A DNA stretch of 64,000 nt from sequence record MZ436830.1; one strand, given 5' to 3'. Of this stretch, positions 2,224 to 58,684 are shown one piece after another. This DNA comes from Escherichia phage JK1. Position 1 is the first letter of the stretch; each line of letters begins with the position of its first letter. Under the pieces are notes generated by a model, which was given only the letters and a program-made list of their open reading frames with translations, did not search any database and had not been told where the DNA came from. Both the position numbers and the translations under genes were made by a program.

Positions 2224-2268
2224 AGCATTTCCTTTAGTTAATTAAGGGTTTTTATAATCCGTGGGAGT

Positions 2269-2298
2269 ATTATACTCTACTCCCAAGAGTTTGTAAAC
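2269..2298 (-). promoter_or_regulatory. T4-type early promoter (GTTTAC-N18-TATAAT) for the 1630..2223 gene
   Basis: Minus strand reads GTTTAC (2298..2293), 18-nt spacer, TATAAT (2274..2269); -10 box lies in inverted repeat GGGAGTA/TACTCCC (2263..2284). Confidence 0.6.
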
Positions 2299-2631
2299 TT
2301 ATTCTTCGTCCAATTCATCAATAAATTTATCGATACTACTATTAATAGACTCATCGATGATTAACAAAGCATCATCATCCATAATATTAATATTTTCTAA
2401 AGCATCAATATAAGCTTGATTGACTATAGACCATGCCCTTTGAAAATATGGGGCTTCATCATCAGGACTGAACCAACGTACACCTTCAAAGATACGTTTG
2501 GCATAATCTAACACCCATTGTACAGGCATGTTTTGAGAACGTTCGTTAAACTCTTTAAAGTCCTTAGATTCAAAAAGCTCTTCAGGATAATAATTTCTAT
2601 TACAAAAAGCTTTACTAAAGTTACGTTTCAT
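2299..2631 (-). CDS. hypothetical protein with acidic C-terminus
   Basis: ORF track 110 aa; early-promoter-like element immediately upstream. Confidence 0.5.
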   Translation of the reverse strand: MKRNFSKAFCNRNYYPEELFESKDFKEFNERSQNMPVQWVLDYAKRIFEGVRWFSPDDEAPYFQRAWSIVNQAYIDALENINIMDDDALLIIDESINSSIDKFIDELDEE

Positions 2632-2657
2632 AATGTTCTCCTCAAAGTTATAGGCTC

Positions 2658-2687
2658 ATAATATCTCAATCATGAGCCTGTGTAAAC
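2658..2687 (-). promoter_or_regulatory. T4-type early promoter (GTTTAC-N18-TATTAT) for the 2299..2631 gene
   Basis: GTTTAC at 2687..2682 on minus, -10 TATTAT at 2663..2658; -10 flanked by 8-bp inverted repeat AGGCTCAT/ATGAGCCT (2652..2679). Confidence 0.55.
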
Positions 2688-2963
2688 TTATTTCATATTA
2701 TTGAAATATTCTTCTGCGATTTCATCGTTATCATGGTAAACTTTAGAAGACAGTTTAACATAACCTTCTGCTGTGAACATATTAATCACAACCTTTACAG
2801 TATACCACTGACCATCTTCATTACCCATTACTGCGTAAGTTTCAAACATCGGATGGTCAGGACCGATAACTTTAATATCATTCACTGTACGACCAAAATC
2901 TTCTGAAACACATTTCATAAAGAAGTTGAACAGTTCGCCGTAATTATCCATTTCATTCTCCAA
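2688..2963 (-). CDS. hypothetical protein
   Basis: ORF track 91 aa; early-promoter-like element upstream at 2995..3024. Confidence 0.5.
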   Translation of the reverse strand: MENEMDNYGELFNFFMKCVSEDFGRTVNDIKVIGPDHPMFETYAVMGNEDGQWYTVKVVINMFTAEGYVKLSSKVYHDNDEIAEEYFNNMK

Positions 2964-2994
2964 GTTGTTTTCTGTATCAGTAGTTGATAGTTGT

Positions 2995-3024
2995 ATAGTA
3001 CCATGGAAGGGTAAGGATGTAAAC
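2995..3024 (-). promoter_or_regulatory. T4-type early promoter (GTTTAC-N18-TACTAT) for the 2688..2963 gene
   Basis: GTTTAC at 3024..3019 on minus, TACTAT at 3000..2995. Confidence 0.5.
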
Positions 3025-3135
3025 TGTTTTGTGAAAAAAATTTTTAAAAAGTTTTGGGGAATTCTAGGGCAGGGAGGGGCAATTAAAAGATAGGATAATA
3101 TATTATAAAGGATAGAAACTAAATGATGTCTAGAG

Positions 3136-3186
3136 AGGCCCGGAAAGGCCTAGATACCAAAAAGCCCCAACCTTTTGGTCGGGGCT
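3136..3186 (-). terminator. tandem hairpins plus U-run after the 3194..3655 gene
   Basis: AGGCC-CGGAAA-GGCCT (3136..3151) then AGCCCCAACC-TTTT-GGTCGGGGCT (3163..3186); minus-strand RNA has the hairpin followed by UUUUU. Confidence 0.55.
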
Positions 3187-3193
3187 AAGAATG

Positions 3194-3655
3194 TTATTTG
3201 ATTTGTTTAGCAGACCAAATGCGATCTTTAATAATTTTTTGGATGTCTTCAACATACTCTAGGTCATGAGCATGTGGATTATCTTTGAAACTATGAGCTC
3301 GCGCAAGTTTCTGGCCTTCGGTCTTAATTATCAAAAGTTCTTTAAGAATTGCTTCATACCTAGAGATAATTCCTTTAGCAATATTTTTTTCTTGTGCTGC
3401 TTTAGGGTCAGCCTTAGGAGCAGGTTTACCAGAAGGTTTTTCGAAAGCCGCACCAGTAGCAACCAGGCTTTTCCAGGCGGTGGTAACATAGTTACCCACA
3501 AAGCCTTCAGCTCTCATATCGTCATAGAACTTGTACCGAGATTCGTCAGAAGCATCTTTATAAGAATATTTACCAGCTTTAATAGCAGCAGTTGCTACAG
3601 CGCGAACATCTGAAGCGGATGCTTCGGTCATTAAAAATTGAGCATAAGTTTTCAT
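3194..3655 (-). CDS. capsid-targeted internal-protein-like protein with divergent CTS (MKTYAQFLMTE)
   Basis: ORF track 153 aa; N-terminus resembles T4 internal-protein capsid targeting sequence MKTYQEFIAE with an L-x-E gp21 cleavage motif; late promoter TATAAATA 30 nt upstream; Lys/Ala-rich body. Confidence 0.55.
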   Translation of the reverse strand: MKTYAQFLMTEASASDVRAVATAAIKAGKYSYKDASDESRYKFYDDMRAEGFVGNYVTTAWKSLVATGAAFEKPSGKPAPKADPKAAQEKNIAKGIISRYEAILKELLIIKTEGQKLARAHSFKDNPHAHDLEYVEDIQKIIKDRIWSAKQIK

Positions 3656-3683
3656 TATTATTTCCTGTGTTAATTAACTCATC

Positions 3684-3691
3684 TATTTATA
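3684..3691 (-). promoter_or_regulatory. T4 late promoter TATAAATA for the 3194..3655 gene
   Basis: Plus strand tatttata is the reverse complement of TATAAATA, about 29 nt upstream of the ATG at 3655. Confidence 0.6.
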
Positions 3692-3721
3692 CCAAAAAGC
3701 CCCAACCTTTCGGCTGGGGCT
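3692..3721 (-). terminator. rho-independent terminator at the end of the tRNA/stable-RNA transcription unit
   Basis: AGCCCCAACC-TTTC-GGCTGGGGCT hairpin; minus-strand RNA has the hairpin followed by UUUUU; near-identical copy at 3157..3186. Confidence 0.6.
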
Positions 3722-3772
3722 AAGCCTTGCGGCAACCTTGTCGGGGTTCCACCTGCTAAGGCAAGTGTTTGT

Positions 3773-3864
3773 ACGAAACGCCGGGATTCGAACCCGGTTA
3801 TTAAGTAGTTGACGCTACTCAATATTTTTAAAAGGCCATATCTCGACCATATCCGAACGTTCCG
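3773..3864 (-). ncRNA. tRNA-like small stable RNA (possibly equivalent to T4 RNA C/D); 5' boundary uncertain
   Basis: Perfect T-arm CCGGG-TTCGAAT-CCCGG (3781..3797 rc) and a 7-bp acceptor-like pairing (3774..3780 with 3858..3864), but no canonical D or anticodon arm could be folded. Confidence 0.35.
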
Positions 3865-4035
3865 TCAAAAACGCTACTCGGCTTATGGCAAAGATATTTC
3901 CTCGAATCGATAATTCGGTGCGCCGTTTCTGCTGTGATGTAAGAGGGCATCAATAAACGTAAAGATTATTAACGCAATTCCTTACTCAGGGAACATCAGT
4001 CCGACGACTTGCCGGTAGCGACCCGGCTTCTTGTC

Positions 4036-4111
4036 TGGTCGAGGCAGTAGGGATCGAACCTACGACCCAGGACTTAGAAGGTCCTTGCTCTTCCTTCTGA
4101 GCTATGCCTCG
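4036..4111 (-). tRNA. tRNA-Arg (anticodon UCU)
   Basis: Cloverleaf folded by hand: acceptor CGAGGCA/TGCCTCG, T-arm GTAGG-GATCGAA-CCTAC, anticodon loop CTTCTAA, CCA encoded. Confidence 0.85.
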
Positions 4112-4115
4112 TATT

Positions 4116-4190
4116 TGGCGGACGTGATAGGATTCGAACCTATAACCAATCGCTTAACAGGCGATCGCTCTGCCATTGAGCTACACATCC
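4116..4190 (-). tRNA. tRNA-Asn (anticodon GUU)
   Basis: 5' GGATGTG-TA-GCTCAATGGCAGAGC D-arm, anticodon loop CTGTTAA, T-arm with TTCGAAT loop, CCA encoded. Confidence 0.8.
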
Positions 4191-4194
4191 AAAT

Positions 4195-4281
4195 TGGTGG
4201 GGAGTGGTGGAGTCGAACCACCCGAGTCGCAATGACAATGGATTTACAGTCCACACCGCTACCTCTACGGGATAACTCCCC
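4195..4281 (-). tRNA. tRNA-Tyr (anticodon GUA), type II with long variable arm
   Basis: 87 nt; acceptor GGGGAGT/ACTCCCC, anticodon loop CTGTAAA, variable-arm hairpin, T-arm GGTGG-TTCGACT-CCACC, CCA encoded. Confidence 0.7.
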
Positions 4282-4290
4282 AAATTAATT

Positions 4291-4365
4291 TGGTGGCCCT
4301 GGGTGGAATTGAACCACCATCTGGCGATTATGAGTCGCTTGCTTGAACCTTCCAGCTACAGGGCC
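4291..4365 (-). tRNA. tRNA-Ile (gene anticodon CAU; AUA-decoding type as in T4) or tRNA-Met
   Basis: Acceptor CAGGGCC/GGCCCTG, anticodon loop CTCATAA, T-arm GGTGG-TTCAATT-CCACC, CCA encoded; Ile assignment by analogy with T4. Confidence 0.7.
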
Positions 4366-4366
4366 T

Positions 4367-4442
4367 TGGTGCTGATTGACGGAATCGAACCGCCGACCTT
4401 CTCATTACAAGTGAGTTGCTCTACCTACTGAGCTAAATCAGC
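4367..4442 (-). tRNA. tRNA-Thr (anticodon UGU)
   Basis: Acceptor GCTGATT/AATCAGC, anticodon loop CTTGTAA, CCA encoded. Confidence 0.85.
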
Positions 4443-4447
4443 AAAAC

Positions 4448-4537
4448 TGGCGGAGGCGATAGGATTTGAACCTATGAGTCGCCGGAGCGACTGCCGGTTT
4501 TCAAGACCGGTGCATTAAACCACTCTGCCACGCCTCC
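4448..4537 (-). tRNA. tRNA-Ser (anticodon UGA), type II
   Basis: 90 nt; GGAGGCG-TG-GCAGAGTGGTTTAATGC D-arm, anticodon loop CTTGAAA, long variable arm, T-arm ATAGG-TTCAAAT-CCTAT, CCA encoded. Confidence 0.85.
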
Positions 4538-4539
4538 AG

Positions 4540-4613
4540 TCTCCATACAAGGATTTGAACCTTGGACCTCCTGATCCCAAATCAGGCGCTCTACCAAACT
4601 GAGCTACACGGAG
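4540..4613 (-). tRNA. tRNA-Pro (anticodon UGG)
   Basis: 5' CTCCGTG-TA-GCTCAGTTTGGTAGAGC, anticodon loop TTTGGGA, T-arm CAAGG-TTCAAAT-CCTTG; no encoded CCA. Confidence 0.85.
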
Positions 4614-4623
4614 TAAATTAAAT

Positions 4624-4697
<74 letters not shown>

Positions 4698-4702
4698 AAA
4701 TT

Positions 4703-4789
4703 TGGTGCGAGAAGTGGGACTCGAACCCACAAGGAAATCATTCCGCAGCATTTTAAGTGCTGTGCCTTTACCAATTTGACCATTCTCGC
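4703..4789 (-). tRNA. tRNA-Leu (anticodon UAA), type II
   Basis: 87 nt; acceptor GCGAGAA/TTCTCGC, anticodon loop CTTAAAA, T-arm GTGGG-TTCGAGT-CCCAC, CCA encoded; 1 nt from tRNA-Gln. Confidence 0.85.
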
Positions 4790-4790
4790 G

Positions 4791-4863
4791 CTGGGAATAA
4801 AGGACTCGAACCTTTGCATCCTGGAATCAAAATCCAGTGCCTTACCAACTTGGCTAATTCCCA
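4791..4863 (-). tRNA. tRNA-Gln (anticodon UUG)
   Basis: 5' TGGGAAT-TA-GCCAAGTTGGTAAGGC, anticodon loop TTTTGAT, T-arm AAAGG-TTCGAGT-CCTTT; no encoded CCA. Confidence 0.85.
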
Positions 4864-4949
4864 ATTATTAACAAAGGCTCTCAAACAAGAACCCTTGATG
4901 ATAGAGGGTATTAATCAGTGCGGTATGAGTTAATAATAACAAATAATTC

Positions 4950-5465
4950 TTAAAGCAAATTAAACATTTTAACGGTCGGCAAAACAATTTCTTTTTCTAT
5001 ATAAGAGTATTTAACACTCTCAACTACACGCAAAAAATCATAATCATAATACTCAGAAGCACTGCCTAAAATATTAATAAGTCCTTCAAGCACTTTATTA
5101 CCATTCACAAAGAATAAGTCAAATACGCGTTCTTCGTCTTCTTCGGATTTATTACCAAGGTCAACTTCTATATCAAAGACCTTTTTAATGAATTCTGGAT
5201 AAAGTTGTTCTGAGAACAGTCCTTCAACCAAGTATTCATAAATAAAAAGCGATTGCTCGCTGAACAAGCCATTACCACAATAACGTTCAGCTTTAGTACT
5301 AGAATGTCTACTTTTAAACTTCTTTAAAAGATATTGAAATTGTAAGATTTCATGCTCTTCTACGCCAAACAGTGTTTTAGTTTTATAGTTGTCACCATCA
5401 TTTTCCCAGGTAGTGACATCAATTACGTAACCCTGCGGAATTGTAGTACCTAAACAAATATTCAT
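4950..5465 (-). CDS. hypothetical protein
   Basis: ORF track 171 aa; in the variable block between tRNA array and gene 57B. Confidence 0.5.
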   Translation of the reverse strand: MNICLGTTIPQGYVIDVTTWENDGDNYKTKTLFGVEEHEILQFQYLLKKFKSRHSSTKAERYCGNGLFSEQSLFIYEYLVEGLFSEQLYPEFIKKVFDIEVDLGNKSEEDEERVFDLFFVNGNKVLEGLINILGSASEYYDYDFLRVVESVKYSYIEKEIVLPTVKMFNLL

Positions 5466-5755
5466 TTGCTCACCATATTAATGTAAGTATATTCAATACA
5501 TTCAAGACCCAAAGGATTCTTGAAAATATCATATTCAAGAGGACCTTTTTCCGTTTCAATAAAGAAATCAAAATTTACTGTATTAAATTTACGGTCTTCC
5601 TTCACTAATTTAACCTGAGAAGATGAACGGTCAATGTAAACCTTTTCAACTTCAAAACATGTTAAAATGCCATAATCATCAATCAAGGCTTTAGCTGCTT
5701 CTTGATCATATTTATATCCATTTTCAATGGATGATACTTTAGCATAAAGAATCAT
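5462..5755 (-). CDS. hypothetical protein
   Basis: ORF track 97 aa; 4-nt overlap with downstream gene. Confidence 0.5.
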   Translation of the reverse strand: MILYAKVSSIENGYKYDQEAAKALIDDYGILTCFEVEKVYIDRSSSQVKLVKEDRKFNTVNFDFFIETEKGPLEYDIFKNPLGLECIEYTYINMVSK

Positions 5756-5757
5756 TA

Positions 5758-6168
5758 TCAGCCTCTATCAACGATAGCATGAGTATGGGCATTTACGATT
5801 TGCCACCAGTCGAAACGATTGGAACCATAATCTGGTTTATTTTCATTTTCTTTAATGATATCACGCAGTTTATCTTCTGTTTCAGCATACGCAATTAAAT
5901 CATCATATCCGCCACAAGGATAATAATTATCACCTGCGAATAAAAGAAAATTTACCTTAGATGGATTTACGTAATAATGGTCTTTAGGATATTTAGTTCC
6001 TCTCCAATCAGTTACTTCAACATAACGGTAAGAAAATCCATTTTTACTTTCAATCCAACTCCACGCTTCAAAAGGAGTATTAAAAACTTTATCAGGTATT
6101 AAATTACCTTCAAAATGAGAAGGATTTGCATAATCCCCGGCATAAACATAATATTCGTTAATACTCAT
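5758..6168 (-). CDS. hypothetical protein
   Basis: ORF track 136 aa. Confidence 0.5.
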   Translation of the reverse strand: MSINEYYVYAGDYANPSHFEGNLIPDKVFNTPFEAWSWIESKNGFSYRYVEVTDWRGTKYPKDHYYVNPSKVNFLLFAGDNYYPCGGYDDLIAYAETEDKLRDIIKENENKPDYGSNRFDWWQIVNAHTHAIVDRG

Positions 6169-6354
6169 CTATTCACCTTTAGAAATTTTATCCATAACGA
6201 TAGCGATTAAACCAATTAAAAATGCTACTACAAGTGAAAACACATTTTCTGCTGTAGTCAATAATCCACATATAAATCCAACAAACATTGAAAAACTAAA
6301 AGCGGAAGCAGAAATTGCAATAGCAACATTTCGAATTAATTCACAACGTTTCAT
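6169..6354 (-). CDS. hypothetical small hydrophobic protein (two predicted TM segments)
   Basis: ORF track 61 aa, AIAISASAFSFSMFVGFICGLL and FSLVVAFLIGLIAIVM; early promoter upstream. Confidence 0.45.
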   Translation of the reverse strand: MKRCELIRNVAIAISASAFSFSMFVGFICGLLTTAENVFSLVVAFLIGLIAIVMDKISKGE

Positions 6355-6382
6355 TTTATTCTCCTCGGTAGTTGATAGGGTA

Positions 6383-6412
6383 ATAGTATCACTACCCTAT
6401 CTAAAAGTAAAC
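6383..6412 (-). promoter_or_regulatory. T4-type early promoter (GTTTAC-N18-TACTAT) for the 6169..6354 gene
   Basis: GTTTAC at 6412..6407 on minus; -10 lies inside perfect 9-bp inverted repeat GATAGGGTA/TACCCTATC (6374..6401). Confidence 0.55.
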
Positions 6413-6646
6413 TTATTTTTTACGAAAAATTGATTTATATTTATCAGCCCATTTCTCAATGACTTTTGCCGGGCCATAGATAACAAAGTAATCGCCAAAC
6501 TCTTCACCACCGAGTTGACCGAAATCATCTAATGCATCACGAAGAACTCCATGAGGCATTTCACCCATTTTATCTTTCTTGCCAGTGTAAATAAACTCAA
6601 CTTTTACATCAGCAGTTTCAGCAATAAATTCTTGATACGTTTTCAT
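6413..6646 (-). CDS. internal protein (IP) with canonical capsid targeting sequence MKTYQEFIAE
   Basis: ORF track 6413..6664; start set at second Met giving MKTYQEFIAE-TADVKV...; this decapeptide is the T4 IPI/II/III CTS cleaved by gp21; mature part differs from T4 IPI as recalled. Confidence 0.7.
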   Translation of the reverse strand: MKTYQEFIAETADVKVEFIYTGKKDKMGEMPHGVLRDALDDFGQLGGEEFGDYFVIYGPAKVIEKWADKYKSIFRKK

Positions 6647-53909: not shown

Positions 53910-53913
53910 CAAT

Positions 53914-53945
53914 GGGGACCTTTCGGTCCCCATATTTTTATTTAC
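53914..53945. terminator. bidirectional terminator between gene 54 and the minus-strand alt region
   Basis: GGGGACC-TTTC-GGTCCCC followed by ATATTTTTATTT on plus; on minus it lies just 3' of the 53938..54228 gene stop. Confidence 0.7.
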
Positions 53946-54228
53946 GGAATGAAATGAAAGCAGAAACTGAAGCAACTAAACTGTCTTCAATATAAACTTC
54001 AATTTTTACCGGAGCTTCTGACTCGAATTTACCTGTTACTACACCTTGGAAAATACTTTCAGTTTGTTCTGGCTTTGAAAAATTTTCAGAAGGAAAAATT
54101 CCGAACTTTTTATCTGTTCCAAAAATTTTGATAAATTCATCATAAACTGCTTCATTAAAAGCATTATCAGCAGGAATAACGCCTTCAACTACAAGTTCTT
54201 GACCCAAAAAGCGCAAAGAAGATTTCAT
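53938..54228 (-). CDS. hypothetical protein (alt.-3-like by position)
   Basis: ORF track 96 aa, downstream of the alt genes. Confidence 0.6.
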   Translation of the reverse strand: MKSSLRFLGQELVVEGVIPADNAFNEAVYDEFIKIFGTDKKFGIFPSENFSKPEQTESIFQGVVTGKFESEAPVKIEVYIEDSLVASVSAFISFRK

Positions 54229-54288
54229 TTTGTGTTCCTCATGTTATGTCAGTAAGACTACTATAACACAACACGAGGGACTTGTAAA

Positions 54289-56346
54289 CTACATCTTGAA
54301 CTTTTTAGACATTCCGTTGATGTTAACCAAAGAAGCCAAGATTTGAGAAACTTCGTTTTCCTCTTCTTTTGATTCTTCTACAAGGAATTGATTAAATCCA
54401 GCCATTGGACGAACTTCACCAGTTTCCATTAAATGGTCGCCATCATATACTGATTCTTCTAATTGTTCAGAAGGAGGAACGATTGTACCTTCTATTAGAT
54501 ACTTGTTATAAGCAGTTTCTTTCATAAAGTACGTGCTCACTTTATTAATCTTCAGTAAAATTCCACGCGGTAGAATAACTTCAGCTTCTGATGGAAATCC
54601 TGATAAATGACCTGGAACGATAACTTTGATTCGCTCAGCTCCTTTAATTACCATACCCACGCTAGTTTCAGCATCTTCATTAGCATATGTAGAATGACTA
54701 CCCATATGCATCAAATCTTCTGCATCAACGGAACCTTCTCCTTCACCAGAAAATACTGCGCCGGAATCATCTAGAGCCATATAGTTTTTACCATGCTCAC
54801 CGAAGATATTTGGTTTAAGCGATGTGGATACGAAGTTCTTGAAATAGAACATTTTATTTTCAATGTTATGACGCAAAGTTTTAAAGGTAACTTCTTGCCC
54901 ACGATAAAGAGTAGTTCCTGGAGGAAGAACAGAACCTTTAGCAAATGCAGAATCCAACGTCTCGATGTGTTTAATAGCTCGTTCCATATATTCTTCACGG
55001 GTAGAATCAGGTTTACCTAAAAGGAACGAGTTCATTTCAACATATGAATCTGCACAATAATCTTCAATTACATCAGATTCAGCTTGGGTTAATCCTTTTG
55101 GAGTTACTTCGGTGCTTGCGTATTCATATGCCTGAGCAGCAGATTCATTAATCAATTTATAAATGCCATTCATTACAAATTGAATAATAGCTGTCTTTTC
55201 ATCTGGCGTAGCTTTAGAACCTTTAACCAAATCATTGATAATTTTCTTAATAACATCAAAGCTATTAGAAATATTAATGTCAGCAAGATCGCTTAAAATT
55301 TTATCAGTTTTATAATCAAAGAATTCTTTATTCTTTAAATATTCTTGAGAACCTTGATATGTTATATCGCTCTGCAACTTGATGGATGGATCACGTAAAC
55401 GTGCATGGGCTAATGCAATATGATTTCGGAAACTTTCTAGTTCATAATCGTTAGATTTAAAACGAGAAGCACTCCTCATACCACCGATAGCTCCTTTGCT
55501 GAAGTTTGAACCAATCTGAATAACGCCAGAGTTCATTGGTCCTTCTGCTTTATATACCGGAACTTTAGATTCAAACTCTTGATATTTCTTAGCAGCGAAG
55601 CTATCACCCTGAAGTGAAGCATCAACAGTAGAATATTGAGCTTGTGCTGCTAATCGACGACTAATTTTAGTTTTCTGAATAACAGCTTGATCCGTGCGCT
55701 TATCATTTTCTAAAGCAATAGAAGCAGCGACAGCGACAGCTTTAGGAACAGCATTACCTGTTTTAACGTCTACATAAACATCACCAACCTTTGATTCAAC
55801 TTTTGTGAATAACTCAGTTGAAATAGGAGGTACACCTGGAATGTCTTCTAAATTGGCATTTTTACGGTAAACCATAATATATGCATATTTCTTATCATAG
55901 TCCCAGATTTCCTTTAAAAGAACATATCGACCTGCTCCTTTAGTACGTACTAAACGGTCAGCAATAACTTGCATTTGACGAGCTGCGCCATTTGTTTTAC
56001 TTTTTAGTACGCGGAATAGGCATGCGTCGATTTTATACTGTTTCATTGTTTGAAGAGCAGTATCAAAAACAGCATTAATGACGCCAATTGGATTTCCACC
56101 CAAGTTTCTAAGCTTGACTAACGATAATTTCTCGTTGACACCTATCATTACGATATGCATCATTTTGTCGCCTGGCTTAACGTTTTTATTCGTATCACCG
56201 CCAGAGGTGTATGTACAAAATCTAAATCCAGGAAGAACGCTTTCTTCACCGGCTTGAATAGCAAAAATTTGTGGTATTTTATGCTTAGGATTTAAGTTAA
56301 CAACCGGCGCCGAAGCGCCGTCAAATAATTCTGTAATAAGTTCCAT
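54289..56346 (-). CDS. Alt-family ADP-ribosyltransferase paralogue (685 aa)
   Basis: N-terminus MELITELFDG... like Alt; C-terminal R-S-EXE-type elements YRGQEV, FVSTSL, EAEVILPRG; central region differs from the adjacent copy. Confidence 0.8.
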   Translation of the reverse strand: MELITELFDGASAPVVNLNPKHKIPQIFAIQAGEESVLPGFRFCTYTSGGDTNKNVKPGDKMMHIVMIGVNEKLSLVKLRNLGGNPIGVINAVFDTALQTMKQYKIDACLFRVLKSKTNGAARQMQVIADRLVRTKGAGRYVLLKEIWDYDKKYAYIMVYRKNANLEDIPGVPPISTELFTKVESKVGDVYVDVKTGNAVPKAVAVAASIALENDKRTDQAVIQKTKISRRLAAQAQYSTVDASLQGDSFAAKKYQEFESKVPVYKAEGPMNSGVIQIGSNFSKGAIGGMRSASRFKSNDYELESFRNHIALAHARLRDPSIKLQSDITYQGSQEYLKNKEFFDYKTDKILSDLADINISNSFDVIKKIINDLVKGSKATPDEKTAIIQFVMNGIYKLINESAAQAYEYASTEVTPKGLTQAESDVIEDYCADSYVEMNSFLLGKPDSTREEYMERAIKHIETLDSAFAKGSVLPPGTTLYRGQEVTFKTLRHNIENKMFYFKNFVSTSLKPNIFGEHGKNYMALDDSGAVFSGEGEGSVDAEDLMHMGSHSTYANEDAETSVGMVIKGAERIKVIVPGHLSGFPSEAEVILPRGILLKINKVSTYFMKETAYNKYLIEGTIVPPSEQLEESVYDGDHLMETGEVRPMAGFNQFLVEESKEEENEVSQILASLVNINGMSKKFKM

Positions 56347-56349
56347 GAT

Positions 56350-58443
56350 TTATCCTTGAACGAACTTGTAAGGCATGTTTGTAATATCTATGCAAGACGC
56401 AATAATTCCAAGAGATGATTCTACTTTCTGTTTAACGTTTGATGAAACAAATGATGCAAAGTCAACTTTGTCTTCTATTTCAATATCACCTGTCATTGCA
56501 ACTACTTCGCCGGTTTCCATTAGATGGTCACCGTCATAAATTACCGATTCGGTGAGTTCTTCTGTGGTCATAACTTCAGCTTGAATAAGTTTTGTATTAT
56601 TAGATGTTGTTCCGTCATTATTAGAAGCATCAGTTATTTTATTAACTTTAACCATCAATCCGCGCGGTAGAATAACTTCAGCTTCTGTTGCTATTCCTAG
56701 ACTTCCTGGATATACAACATTAACTTTATGTGCGCCGTCAATTGCCCATCCTATTTGAACTTTAACGTATTCAGGATTTTCTTTATACGCTCTTATTTCG
56801 TTTGGATTAATAGTTATTCCTTCTTCATTTTTATCAACTGTTAATTCATTGCGAGCTTCTGGTTCTAAAAGACCAATACCAGCATGTGTAATTCCAAAAC
56901 GTCCAAAAATGATAGGAGTTAAAGAAGTAGATACAAAATTTCTGAAGTAGAACACTTTATTTTTAACTAACGCTTCATATATAGGAGCAGTCATACTTTG
57001 AGCACGATAAACTGTAATGCCTTCTGGTATACGGTCACCATTTTCAAAAGCTGAATCTAAGTTATTTATAGCAGATTCAATTTCTTTTTCACTCATTACA
57101 TCATATCGTTCTGGATTGTAACGACCTAAAAGAAGATTATTGATGTCAGTATATCCTGAACCGCAATATTCTCTAATGCCACGCTTTTGTGATGGAGTAT
57201 ATTTAGAACCATCGCGGGCAATAGTAATATCAATCATTGGACCAGCACCAATTCCAGAAAAACTGTAAATCATTCGTTTGAGGAATTTAGTTTTTGCTGC
57301 GTTCCAGGAATTTTTAGTTATTTCTTCCCAGACTTCATCTGGTTGTCCTTTACGATTTTTATTATGATTAGCAAGCCATTTATCTTTATAATCTTCAAAG
57401 AATTGATTTACAGCTGCTGCGTATTTCTCTAAACATTTTATTGAAGTAGTTGGTTCATTTTTAATTGCATTAAAAATTACTTCTTTAATTTTTTCTGAAA
57501 CTTCACCGACTTGACTCATTGGAAAGAATTTATAATCATAGTGAAGTTCATCTGCCGTTCCTTCAGCAATAATTTTTGCTGCCTTTGTTTTAGAAGCTAA
57601 TGAATTAATTCCAATTTTCATTTCTTCTGCTTCGGGAATTAAAGGTGCAGTAGCTGGTTTATTAAAATTAGCTGCTGTAGATTCATACTTCTGGAATAAT
57701 TCACTTTCAAATCTAGAAGATTCCAATGACTGACTTTGTGCAATTGCTCTACGGGAAATTTTAACTTTAACGATTACAGCTTGGTCAGAACGTTTATCGT
57801 TTTCTTGCGCAATAGATGCTGCAATTGCCTCATTTTTAGTTACTTGGGCTCCAGTATCTTTATTGATATAAACATCACCAACCTTCGATTCAACCTTAGT
57901 AAAGAGTTCAGTACTAATTTCTGGAACTCCTGGAATGTCTTCTAGTGATACGTTTTTACGATGTATAAGAATATATGCATACTTTTTATCGTAATCCCAG
58001 AGTTCCTTAAGAAGGACGTATCTGCCACCTGAACGACTACGGATAAGTCTATCAGCAATAACTTGAATTTGTCGAGCTTGACCAGCGGTTTTAGACTTAA
58101 GAATACGAAGCATACAAGCATCAATTTTATATTGACGCATTGTTTGCATTGCAACAGTAAAAACTGAATTGATATAATTAATTGGGCTTGGACCAAGACC
58201 TTTCAATTTAGCAATTGAACCTTTAGCAGTTAATGTAAAAGGAACAATATGCATCATTTTGTCGCCCATTTTTAAATCACGATTAGTATCACCTCCAGAT
58301 GTATAGGTACATAAACGAAAGCCTGGTTGTTCAATTGCATCATCAACATGAACTGAAAAAATTTGTGGTATTTTCTTCTTTGGATTTAAGTTTGTAATCG
58401 GAAGAGTAGTATCTTCGTCAAATAATTCTGTAATGAGTTCCAT
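56350..58443 (-). CDS. alt: Alt ADP-ribosyltransferase (packaged, injected); likely T4 alt orthologue
   Basis: ORF track 56350..58446; second ATG preferred for SD spacing; MELITELFDEDTTLPITNL...; YRAQSM, FVSTSL, EAEVILPRG motifs; 697 aa. Confidence 0.85.
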   Translation of the reverse strand: MELITELFDEDTTLPITNLNPKKKIPQIFSVHVDDAIEQPGFRLCTYTSGGDTNRDLKMGDKMMHIVPFTLTAKGSIAKLKGLGPSPINYINSVFTVAMQTMRQYKIDACMLRILKSKTAGQARQIQVIADRLIRSRSGGRYVLLKELWDYDKKYAYILIHRKNVSLEDIPGVPEISTELFTKVESKVGDVYINKDTGAQVTKNEAIAASIAQENDKRSDQAVIVKVKISRRAIAQSQSLESSRFESELFQKYESTAANFNKPATAPLIPEAEEMKIGINSLASKTKAAKIIAEGTADELHYDYKFFPMSQVGEVSEKIKEVIFNAIKNEPTTSIKCLEKYAAAVNQFFEDYKDKWLANHNKNRKGQPDEVWEEITKNSWNAAKTKFLKRMIYSFSGIGAGPMIDITIARDGSKYTPSQKRGIREYCGSGYTDINNLLLGRYNPERYDVMSEKEIESAINNLDSAFENGDRIPEGITVYRAQSMTAPIYEALVKNKVFYFRNFVSTSLTPIIFGRFGITHAGIGLLEPEARNELTVDKNEEGITINPNEIRAYKENPEYVKVQIGWAIDGAHKVNVVYPGSLGIATEAEVILPRGLMVKVNKITDASNNDGTTSNNTKLIQAEVMTTEELTESVIYDGDHLMETGEVVAMTGDIEIEDKVDFASFVSSNVKQKVESSLGIIASCIDITNMPYKFVQG

Positions 58444-58476
58444 CATATCCTCTCTAGTGTTTATTCTATTTATAAA

Positions 58477-58492
58477 ATTAAAGGCCCGAAGG
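58477..58492 (-). terminator. hairpin AGGCC-CGAA-GGCCT after the 58496..58684 gene
   Basis: On minus strand the stem-loop is followed by TTTAATTTTAT. Confidence 0.5.
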
Positions 58493-58495
58493 CCT

Positions 58496-58684
58496 TTAAT
58501 AATCTATTGGTAAGAGAGTACGATATATTTCAAACTTTGGACCTTTTTCATAGGCATCAAATGTTTCTGTGAATTTATTATAAGCATATGCATCTATAAA
58601 TTCAATCATGATTTGTGATACAGAAGTAGAAACATCTCCACCTTCTTTTTGAGCCACGACAATTGTTTCTAAGTAAGCTTTCAT
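58496..58684 (-). CDS. hypothetical small protein
   Basis: ORF track 62 aa; 4-nt overlap with the ligase gene upstream. Confidence 0.55.
   Translation of the reverse strand: MKAYLETIVVAQKEGGDVSTSVSQIMIEFIDAYAYNKFTETFDAYEKGPKFEIYRTLLPIDY

Follow-up and report, generated by a model that had tools for sequence, protein, structure and literature searches.

Among the closest described relatives of the genes considered here, two adjacent genes of Escherichia phage JK1 that we call altA and altB, is the alt gene of bacteriophage T4. Its product, T4 Alt (gpAlt, NP_049811), is a head-packaged, gp21-processed arginine ADP-ribosyltransferase that acts on RNA polymerase alpha and other host proteins. 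In T4 Alt, mass spectrometry has shown that the prohead protease gp21 cuts at ITE-6 and LTE-619 and so strips 6 N-terminal and 63 C-terminal residues from the protein (Ali et al. 2017, PMC5694885). ModA and ModB of T4 are early-expressed members of the same R-S-E ADP-ribosyltransferase (ART) clade with a role in host takeover (PMC5512222); unlike Alt, they are about 200 amino acids (aa) long, are not packaged, and lack both the PF26846 domain and the gp21 sites. Paralogues of alt have been reported in T4-like phages, among them a full-length one in 44RR (Nolan et al. 2006, PMC1524935).

In this work we analysed a window of 64,000 nucleotides (nt) from JK1 (MZ436830.1), the whole stretch to which all unmarked coordinates below refer. 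We consider it probable that altA and altB encode two paralogous, functional, head-packaged Alt arginine mono-ADP-ribosyltransferases that are co-read from one late promoter, and that the second enzyme probably has other substrates than the first. To our knowledge, no Alt structure has been solved, and the ADP-ribosylation of RNA polymerase alpha at Arg265 is known for T4 Alt only.

Results

The gene order is that of a T4-like phage (Tequatrovirus), with genes 48, 54 and alt.-3 followed by two long open reading frames (ORFs), alt.1 and gene 30 (DNA ligase). By synteny, the pair occupies the position of an Alt-type locus, between alt.1/gene 30 on one side and alt.-3/gene 54 on the other. An earlier sequence-only reading of this DNA had described two minus-strand ORFs of 685 and 697 aa, 3 nt apart, that carry a MELITE start and ART motifs, and both the ORF list and our alignment confirm it: the spacer is 56347-56349, and the two products have in common the MELITE start, YR(A/G)Q, FVSTSL and EAEVILPRG. 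The ORF list gives altA as 56350..58446(-), 698 aa, with the start MMELITE. The second ATG, at 58443, yields the 697-aa protein, and a GAGG lies 5 nt ahead of it and just 2 nt ahead of the first ATG. Overall the products are 41% identical (BLASTP, E = 5e-159), with 68% identity over the N-terminal ~238 aa, about 21% over the central ~170-180 aa, 36% in the ART domain and 44% in the C-terminal tail. The similarity of the N-terminal parts noted in the sequence-only reading therefore stands, whereas the strongly divergent middle of 250 aa does not: the helical middle spans about 175 aa and the catalytic domain is also quite diverged.

Both proteins matched PF03496 (ADPrib_exo_Tox) well above the Pfam gathering cut-off of 23.4 bits, altA with 129.9 bits (E = 1e-37) and altB with 71.9 bits (E = 6e-20), and both matched phrog_802, 'Alt-like RNA polymerase ADP-ribosyltransferase', over their full length (E = 4e-273 for altA and 3e-256 for altB). 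They show the features of an ART fold of the R-S-E family (PF03496; Alt/VIP2 clade). The catalytic set of altA is R480, S505-T-S507 and E587-A-E589, and pairwise alignment of the two products shows that altB keeps its own, namely R482, S507-T-S509 and E587-A-E589. In an alignment of 18 diverse family members, the R, the S-x-S and the E-x-E are invariant. Judged from these matches and residues, altA and altB are R-S-E arginine mono-ADP-ribosyltransferases of the Alt/VIP2 clade with predicted activity.

The AlphaFold models of the two proteins (predicted local distance difference test, pLDDT, 76 and 73) share a four-part layout, composed of an alpha/beta N-terminal domain (approximately residues 12-200 plus linker helices), an all-helical centre, the ART domain and a low-confidence tail. 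The N-terminal part belongs to PF26846, as indicated by the precomputed Pfam annotation of a 99%-identical protein (P0001) and of homologues. Searches of NCBIfam gave no match for the Alt proteins of the window; a sequence search of the PDB gave none for altB and, for altA, weak matches to CDTa and iota only, in the ART domain. The central region of altB (180 aa) searched alone had no match among 1.84 billion cluster representatives, and this domain thus has no detectable relatives outside the family; the 50% cluster representative of the Alt family itself is probably an A-class protein.

The sites at which gp21 would be expected to act are conserved at both ends. At the N-terminal site, position 4 is L or I in the 18 sequences and E6 is invariant. 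At the C-terminal site, LTE-632 of altA and LEE-631 of altB align with LTE-619 of T4 Alt; the E never varies, and at P3 all 18 aligned sequences have L, I or M. The best-conserved stretch beyond the catalytic core, S-V-x-YDGD-x-L-M-E-T-G-E, follows the C-terminal gp21 site and in both models falls within the disordered tail. For the mature proteins, masses of 70.1 kDa (altA) and 69.2 kDa (altB) are predicted.

Upstream of altA, directly after the GC-rich hairpin at the alt.1 stop codon, comes the core motif TATAAATA, which we take to be a late promoter from established T4 knowledge. Given that gp21 processing sites and a late-promoter context are both present, packaging of both proteins seems likely. 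We infer that altB is co-transcribed with altA from this promoter. A further TATAAATA inside altA (57063-57070, minus strand), about 715 nt upstream of the altB start, was rejected as a separate altB promoter because a rough estimate puts the number of such 8-mers expected by chance in 2 kb of 65% A+T DNA close to one. A sigma-70 scan gave no excess of promoter-like sites (18 against 19.6 expected). The hairpin itself is a probable terminator upstream of alt; it was not reported by a simple terminator scan. A conserved terminator at this place has been described in T4-like phages (Nolan 2006, PMC1524935).

The two genes fall into different effector classes. Clustering was done on the central-plus-ART region of altA, altB, T4 Alt and the 120 closest proteins of the database. 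Members of the A class (T4-type, T2-type and P0016/P0018) are 41-49% identical to one another and members of the B class (altB, P0009, the JS10-type P0011/12 and P0013-15) 29-64%, whereas effector modules of the two classes are only about 20% identical; the effector part of altB is approximately 23% identical to that of T4 Alt. One protein, P0017, is an outlier, being 22-27% identical to the B class and about 20% to the A class, and was counted with the B class only for the comparison that follows.

Three positions before the E-x-E, in the ADP-ribosylating toxin turn-turn (ARTT) loop, F or Y is found in 15/15 B-class proteins (P0017 included), in contrast to P, Q or I in 106/106 A-class proteins. 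According to Han et al. (2001), C3 and iota-type toxins have at this position the aromatic residue of ARTT turn 1, by which the substrate protein is contacted. The residue is the most concrete hint in the sequence that altA and altB might have different substrates. Since the helical and ART parts of altB are so far removed from those of the A class, altB probably recognises other host substrates, and distinct host targets for the two proteins, as the sequence-only reading had suggested, are plausible on such grounds.

There is good reason to regard altB as a maintained gene and not a decaying copy. The ratio of nonsynonymous to synonymous divergence (dN/dS) is 0.063 at a synonymous divergence (dS) of 0.21 in comparison with the altB of phage WL-3 (97% aa identity), and 0.12 in comparison with an orthologue of 75% identity from a metagenomic contig (L005). 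Furthermore, altB is present at full length and at least 90% identity in about 400 phage records, T2 and T6 among them. The L005 pair (2242-6423 of a Logan contig from SRR23924977) derives from a more distant T4-like phage and is 75% identical to the window in altB and 65% in altA; its two genes have the same 3-nt spacing, and alt.1 is missing between ligase and altA. The tandem state must therefore be older than the divergence of the L005 lineage.

A tandem alt pair is nothing out of the ordinary: most Tequatrovirus phages have one, and the arrangement is already known and annotated. The second Alt gene is intact in about four-fifths of the sequenced Tequatrovirus genomes. T2 (AP018813) and T6 (AP018814) both carry an intact pair of 2094 and 2058 nt, the second gene of which is annotated 'hypothetical protein'; in RB14 altB is annotated 'alt.-2', and in RefSeq many phages have 'Alt-like RNA polymerase ADP-ribosyltransferase (x2)'.

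T4 does not carry two intact genes, and its second gene is a broken stub, the small ORFs alt.-1 and alt.-2. T4 DNA follows the window as far as 54308 and then continues at 55999, a deletion of 1,699 bp (window 54309-55998 plus one repeat copy). Since both break points carry the direct repeat ACTTTTTAG, this part of altB was lost by deletion between short direct repeats. In addition, T4 has A4 in place of the A5 run of altB, a -1 frameshift that terminates alt.-1; the next ATG is the start of alt.-2. What is left in T4 aligns collinearly with window 55999-56346, with no more than scattered substitutions in a residue-level alignment. The two families of alt.-1/alt.-2 match altB far better than altA: phrog_23015 matches altB residues 1-56 with E = 2e-40 (altA, 1e-21) and phrog_15247 matches altB residues 62-117 with E = 1e-37 (altA, 2e-19). 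The GenBank note of T4 describes alt.-1/alt.-2 as 'an old duplication of the first part of gene alt'. We find that they are the deletion stub of the full-length paralogue altB, not a partial duplication of alt. The idea of the sequence-only reading that the extra copy is the intact form of alt.-1/alt.-2 is thus upheld, as the junction at the 9-bp repeat, the frameshift and the PHROG matches all favour altB. The T4-type junction is contiguous in 91/501 matching records, which means that the deletion is also present in natural isolates.

The upstream gene, altA, is a T2-type alt allele, not the alt of T4. It is 97.6% identical to T2 alt (X69893). Compared with T4 Alt, the N-terminal part (238-250 aa) and the C-terminal tail are 94-100% identical with a dS of 0.17-0.22; the central and ART regions have 32% and 67% aa identity, respectively, with dS at about 1.3 (saturated), and together they are about 49% identical. 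In a regional alignment the first 250 aa are about 100% and the centre is 23-47% identical to T4 Alt. The segment with the jump in dS corresponds to window 56548-57729 (residues 239-632), compared with the T4 locus (L001 3455-5503). The altA allele is found at 90% identity or more in 316 records of the phage collection and alleles at 60-80% in 212 records, and at least three allele groups of alt can be distinguished in Tequatrovirus. The jump in dS between conserved flanks, taken together with these allele counts, shows that the effector part of alt is exchanged as a cassette.

Exchange also occurs between the two genes. Four database proteins (P0003-P0006) are hybrids that join an altA-type N-terminus to an altB body. 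Their crossovers lie near residues 55, 105, 195 and 225, at least the first and third of them at islands of exact identity of 18-20 nt, and the hybrids are consistent with being unequal-crossover products of a tandem pair at short identical stretches. Assembly chimerism was considered as their source and is unlikely, given three complete isolate genomes and exact shared stretches of no more than 25 nt. In L003 (5001-7055) and L009 (3501-5561) the hybrid is the sole alt gene between alt.1 and alt.-3, and three complete genomes, those of Yersinia phage PST (L004 1501-3561), ECML-134 and SCS4, likewise have a single hybrid. It follows that the B effector can serve as the only Alt of a phage and that the N-terminal module is interchangeable.

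In the N-terminal domain, the loop between the strand 108-114 and the helix 122-136 reads K117-T-N-G120-A-A and resembles motif A of GNAT proteins; K117 and G120 are invariant in the 18-sequence alignment. The N-terminal domain had no Pfam match to support a GNAT assignment at E < 0.1, and no match at E < 1 to PDB profiles, solved GNATs included. The GNAT idea is at present a lead without sequence support.

The coordinates of the two genes, their parts and their signals are collected in Table 1.

Table 1. Features of the tandem alt locus of phage JK1 (window positions).
Feature	Position	Strand	Remarks
altA	56350..58443	-	697-aa A-class Alt ADP-ribosyltransferase, T2-type alt allele; stop codon included
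altA N-terminal propeptide MELITE, gp21 site ITE-6	58426..58443	-	E6 invariant in 18 sequences
altA N-terminal alpha/beta domain, PF26846 Tevenvirinae_ADPRT	57730..58425	-	residues 7-238
altA variable all-helical central domain	57214..57729	-	residues 239-410; predicted secondary structure
altA ART domain	56548..57213	-	residues 411-632; R480, S505/S507, E587/E589; ends at predicted gp21 site LTE-632
altA predicted C-terminal propeptide, starts SVIYDGDHLMETGE	56353..56547	-	residues 633-697; low pLDDT from residue 652
altB	54289..56346	-	685-aa B-class Alt paralogue; stop codon included
altB N-terminal propeptide MELITE, gp21 site ITE-6	56329..56346	-	E6 invariant in 18 sequences
altB N-terminal alpha/beta domain, PF26846	55642..56328	-	residues 7-235; first 116 codons correspond to T4 alt.-1 and alt.-2
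altB variable all-helical central domain	55102..55641	-	residues 236-415; dN/dS 0.10-0.16
altB ART domain	54454..55101	-	residues 416-631; R482, S507/S509, E587/E589, ARTT-loop F584; ends at predicted LEE-631
altB predicted C-terminal propeptide, starts SVYDGDHLMETGE	54292..54453	-	residues 632-685; pLDDT < 50 for 631-685
T4-type late promoter core TATAAATA	58467..58474	-	exact motif, 24 nt upstream of altA start codon
Hairpin AAAGGCC-TTCG-GGCCTTT with T-run	58480..58497	-	GC-rich; overlaps alt.1 stop codon
9-bp direct repeat ACTTTTTAG, copy 1	54300..54308	+	last altB codons; one T4-type deletion end point
9-bp direct repeat ACTTTTTAG, copy 2	55999..56007	+	altB codons 114-116; other deletion end point
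A5 run in altB	56183..56187	-	gene nt 160-164; T4 has A4

Directly downstream of altB lies a homologue of alt.-3 (53938-54228, minus strand; 96 aa, PF17602 DUF5498). T4 mutants in which Alt.-3 is extended at its C-terminus keep CmdA from being degraded and thereby evade the CmdTAC defence (Vassallo et al. 2024, PMC11618068). At the altB stop codon begins a promoter-like site, TTTACA-17 nt-TATAGT, extended by TG (54260-54288, minus strand). If the G in front of it is included, the site starts with GTTTAC, which Nolan 2006 (PMC1524935) quotes as the -35 consensus of T4 early promoters, and alt.-3 may therefore have an early promoter of its own, independent of the late alt genes. The hairpin ATGGGGACC-TTTC-GGTCCCCAT (53912-53933), with a perfect 9-bp stem, lies where alt.-3 and gene 54 converge; terminator scoring picks it up on either strand, and it probably acts bidirectionally and closes the alt transcription unit. 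On the other side, the alt.1 homologue (58496-58684, minus strand; 62 aa) matches PF24647, 'Phage_blade' (E = 7.5e-29). Some automated annotations give the alt.1 orthologue of T6 unrelated names, for example 'siderophore-interacting protein', and many other gene names in the T2 and T6 records look unreliable.

Discussion

Based on these observations, we propose a model for the action of the two proteins. The two have one layout: a 6-residue propeptide that would be cut off after ITE, the PF26846 domain, a fast-evolving helical domain, an R-S-ExE ART domain and an L-x-E gp21 site, beyond which a C-terminal propeptide of about 55-65 residues extends. Both proteins would be built into the prohead core, where gp21 would trim them at both ends to approximately 69-70 kDa. 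The mature altA and altB products would then enter the host together with the DNA, where they would ADP-ribosylate arginines of host proteins. In this view altA, of the A class, is the counterpart of T4 Alt, and altB, of the B class, is an old paralogue, which the T4 lineage lost through the frameshift and the deletion between the repeats, leaving alt.-1 and alt.-2. For altB, packaging, enzymatic activity and a difference in targets are what we infer from the conserved sites and residues.

That the tandem pair itself is an artefact of assembly or annotation, for example a duplicated contig segment, is already excluded for practical purposes: the copies are only 65% identical in DNA over their first 750 nt, with a longest exact shared stretch of 25 nt, and hundreds of complete genomes that were sequenced independently, those of T2 and T6 among them, show the arrangement. 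Several points do weigh against our proposal. Directly upstream of altB there is no late promoter of its own, and the argument from the ARTT residue is one by analogy with toxins. In the searchable literature we found neither proteomics of virions nor data on activity or targets for altB, and no experimental work on a B-class enzyme; searches on the second Alt gene, Tequatrovirus virion proteomics and the Alt proteins of T2 and T6 likewise returned nothing specific. Moreover, either gene has been lost in nature, T4-type phages having A only and PST and ECML-134 the B effector only, so that neither can be essential and some redundancy is possible. These losses, in which natural phages manage with either gene alone, are one reason to consider altB a redundant second copy that provides dosage or back-up for the modification of RNA polymerase alpha and has no distinct target set; the common architecture, the arginine-type E-x-E motif and the 68% identical N-terminal domains point in the same direction. 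We nevertheless regard redundancy as unlikely, because identity between the classes is only about 20% in the helical and ART parts while each class is conserved under purifying selection within itself, and because the ARTT residue is class-specific. For a redundant copy, decay or homogenisation by gene conversion would be expected, yet the two genes remain distinct in about 400 genomes.

It is also conceivable that altB does not act from the virion at all, but late inside the producing cell, in the manner of ModA/ModB after expression, or that it is what remains of a duplication and has no function. Loss of the gene has done T4 no obvious harm in the laboratory, as either of these would allow. 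However, both gp21 sites and the PF26846 domain are conserved in altB, its dN/dS is 0.06-0.12, its catalytic residues are invariant, and PST and ECML-134 have no Alt other than a hybrid of altA N-terminus and altB body, which indicates that the B effector works in the packaged format. Such a role, or lack of one, is in our opinion very improbable, and two packaged enzymes that probably differ in substrates remain the reading we prefer.

A wider interpretation can be offered tentatively, and we hold it to be possible rather than probable. The B-class Alt may be a second capsid-delivered effector with targets other than RNA polymerase alpha, for example a component of defence or translation, that has been overlooked since T4 deleted it. 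The alt locus may be a recombining cassette system, in which a constant packaging module is combined with exchangeable helical and ART modules, and the shared N-terminal domain may be GNAT-like, with a catalytic or ligand-binding role beyond that of a packaging handle. As a sequence feature the pair is ordinary and annotated. What is known of injected phage ADP-ribosyltransferases derives almost wholly from the model phage T4, which lacks the second enzyme; if that enzyme has targets of its own, the textbook account of T-even host takeover at injection is incomplete. Furthermore, with its constant N-terminal module, exchangeable effectors and hybrids, the alt locus would be a convenient natural system for the study of how packaged effectors are swapped.

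The JK1 locus resembles that of T4 Alt in genomic position, domain layout, the ITE-6 and L-x-E sites, the R-S-ExE residues and the late promoter. It differs in that the effector cassette of altA has been exchanged and that altB is 42-44% identical overall to T4 Alt. The broken alt.-1 and alt.-2 of T4 (NP_049810 and NP_049809) match altB codons 1-116 at high DNA identity. In comparison with the pairs of T2 and T6 (X69893; AP018813 EcT2_00209/00208; AP018814 EcT6_00198/00197) and of RB14, which match in gene lengths and 3-nt spacing at 97-99% identity, nothing essential differs, and the window represents another mosaic Tequatrovirus that is no more than 97.5% identical to any record over 25 kb. 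The C3, VIP2, iota and Vis-type toxins (PF03496) share the ART domain with these phage proteins. In contrast to the toxins, the phage proteins carry about 410 extra N-terminal residues, comprising the PF26846 and helical domains, as well as two protease-removed propeptides, and they would enter the target cell from a capsid and not by way of a toxin translocon.

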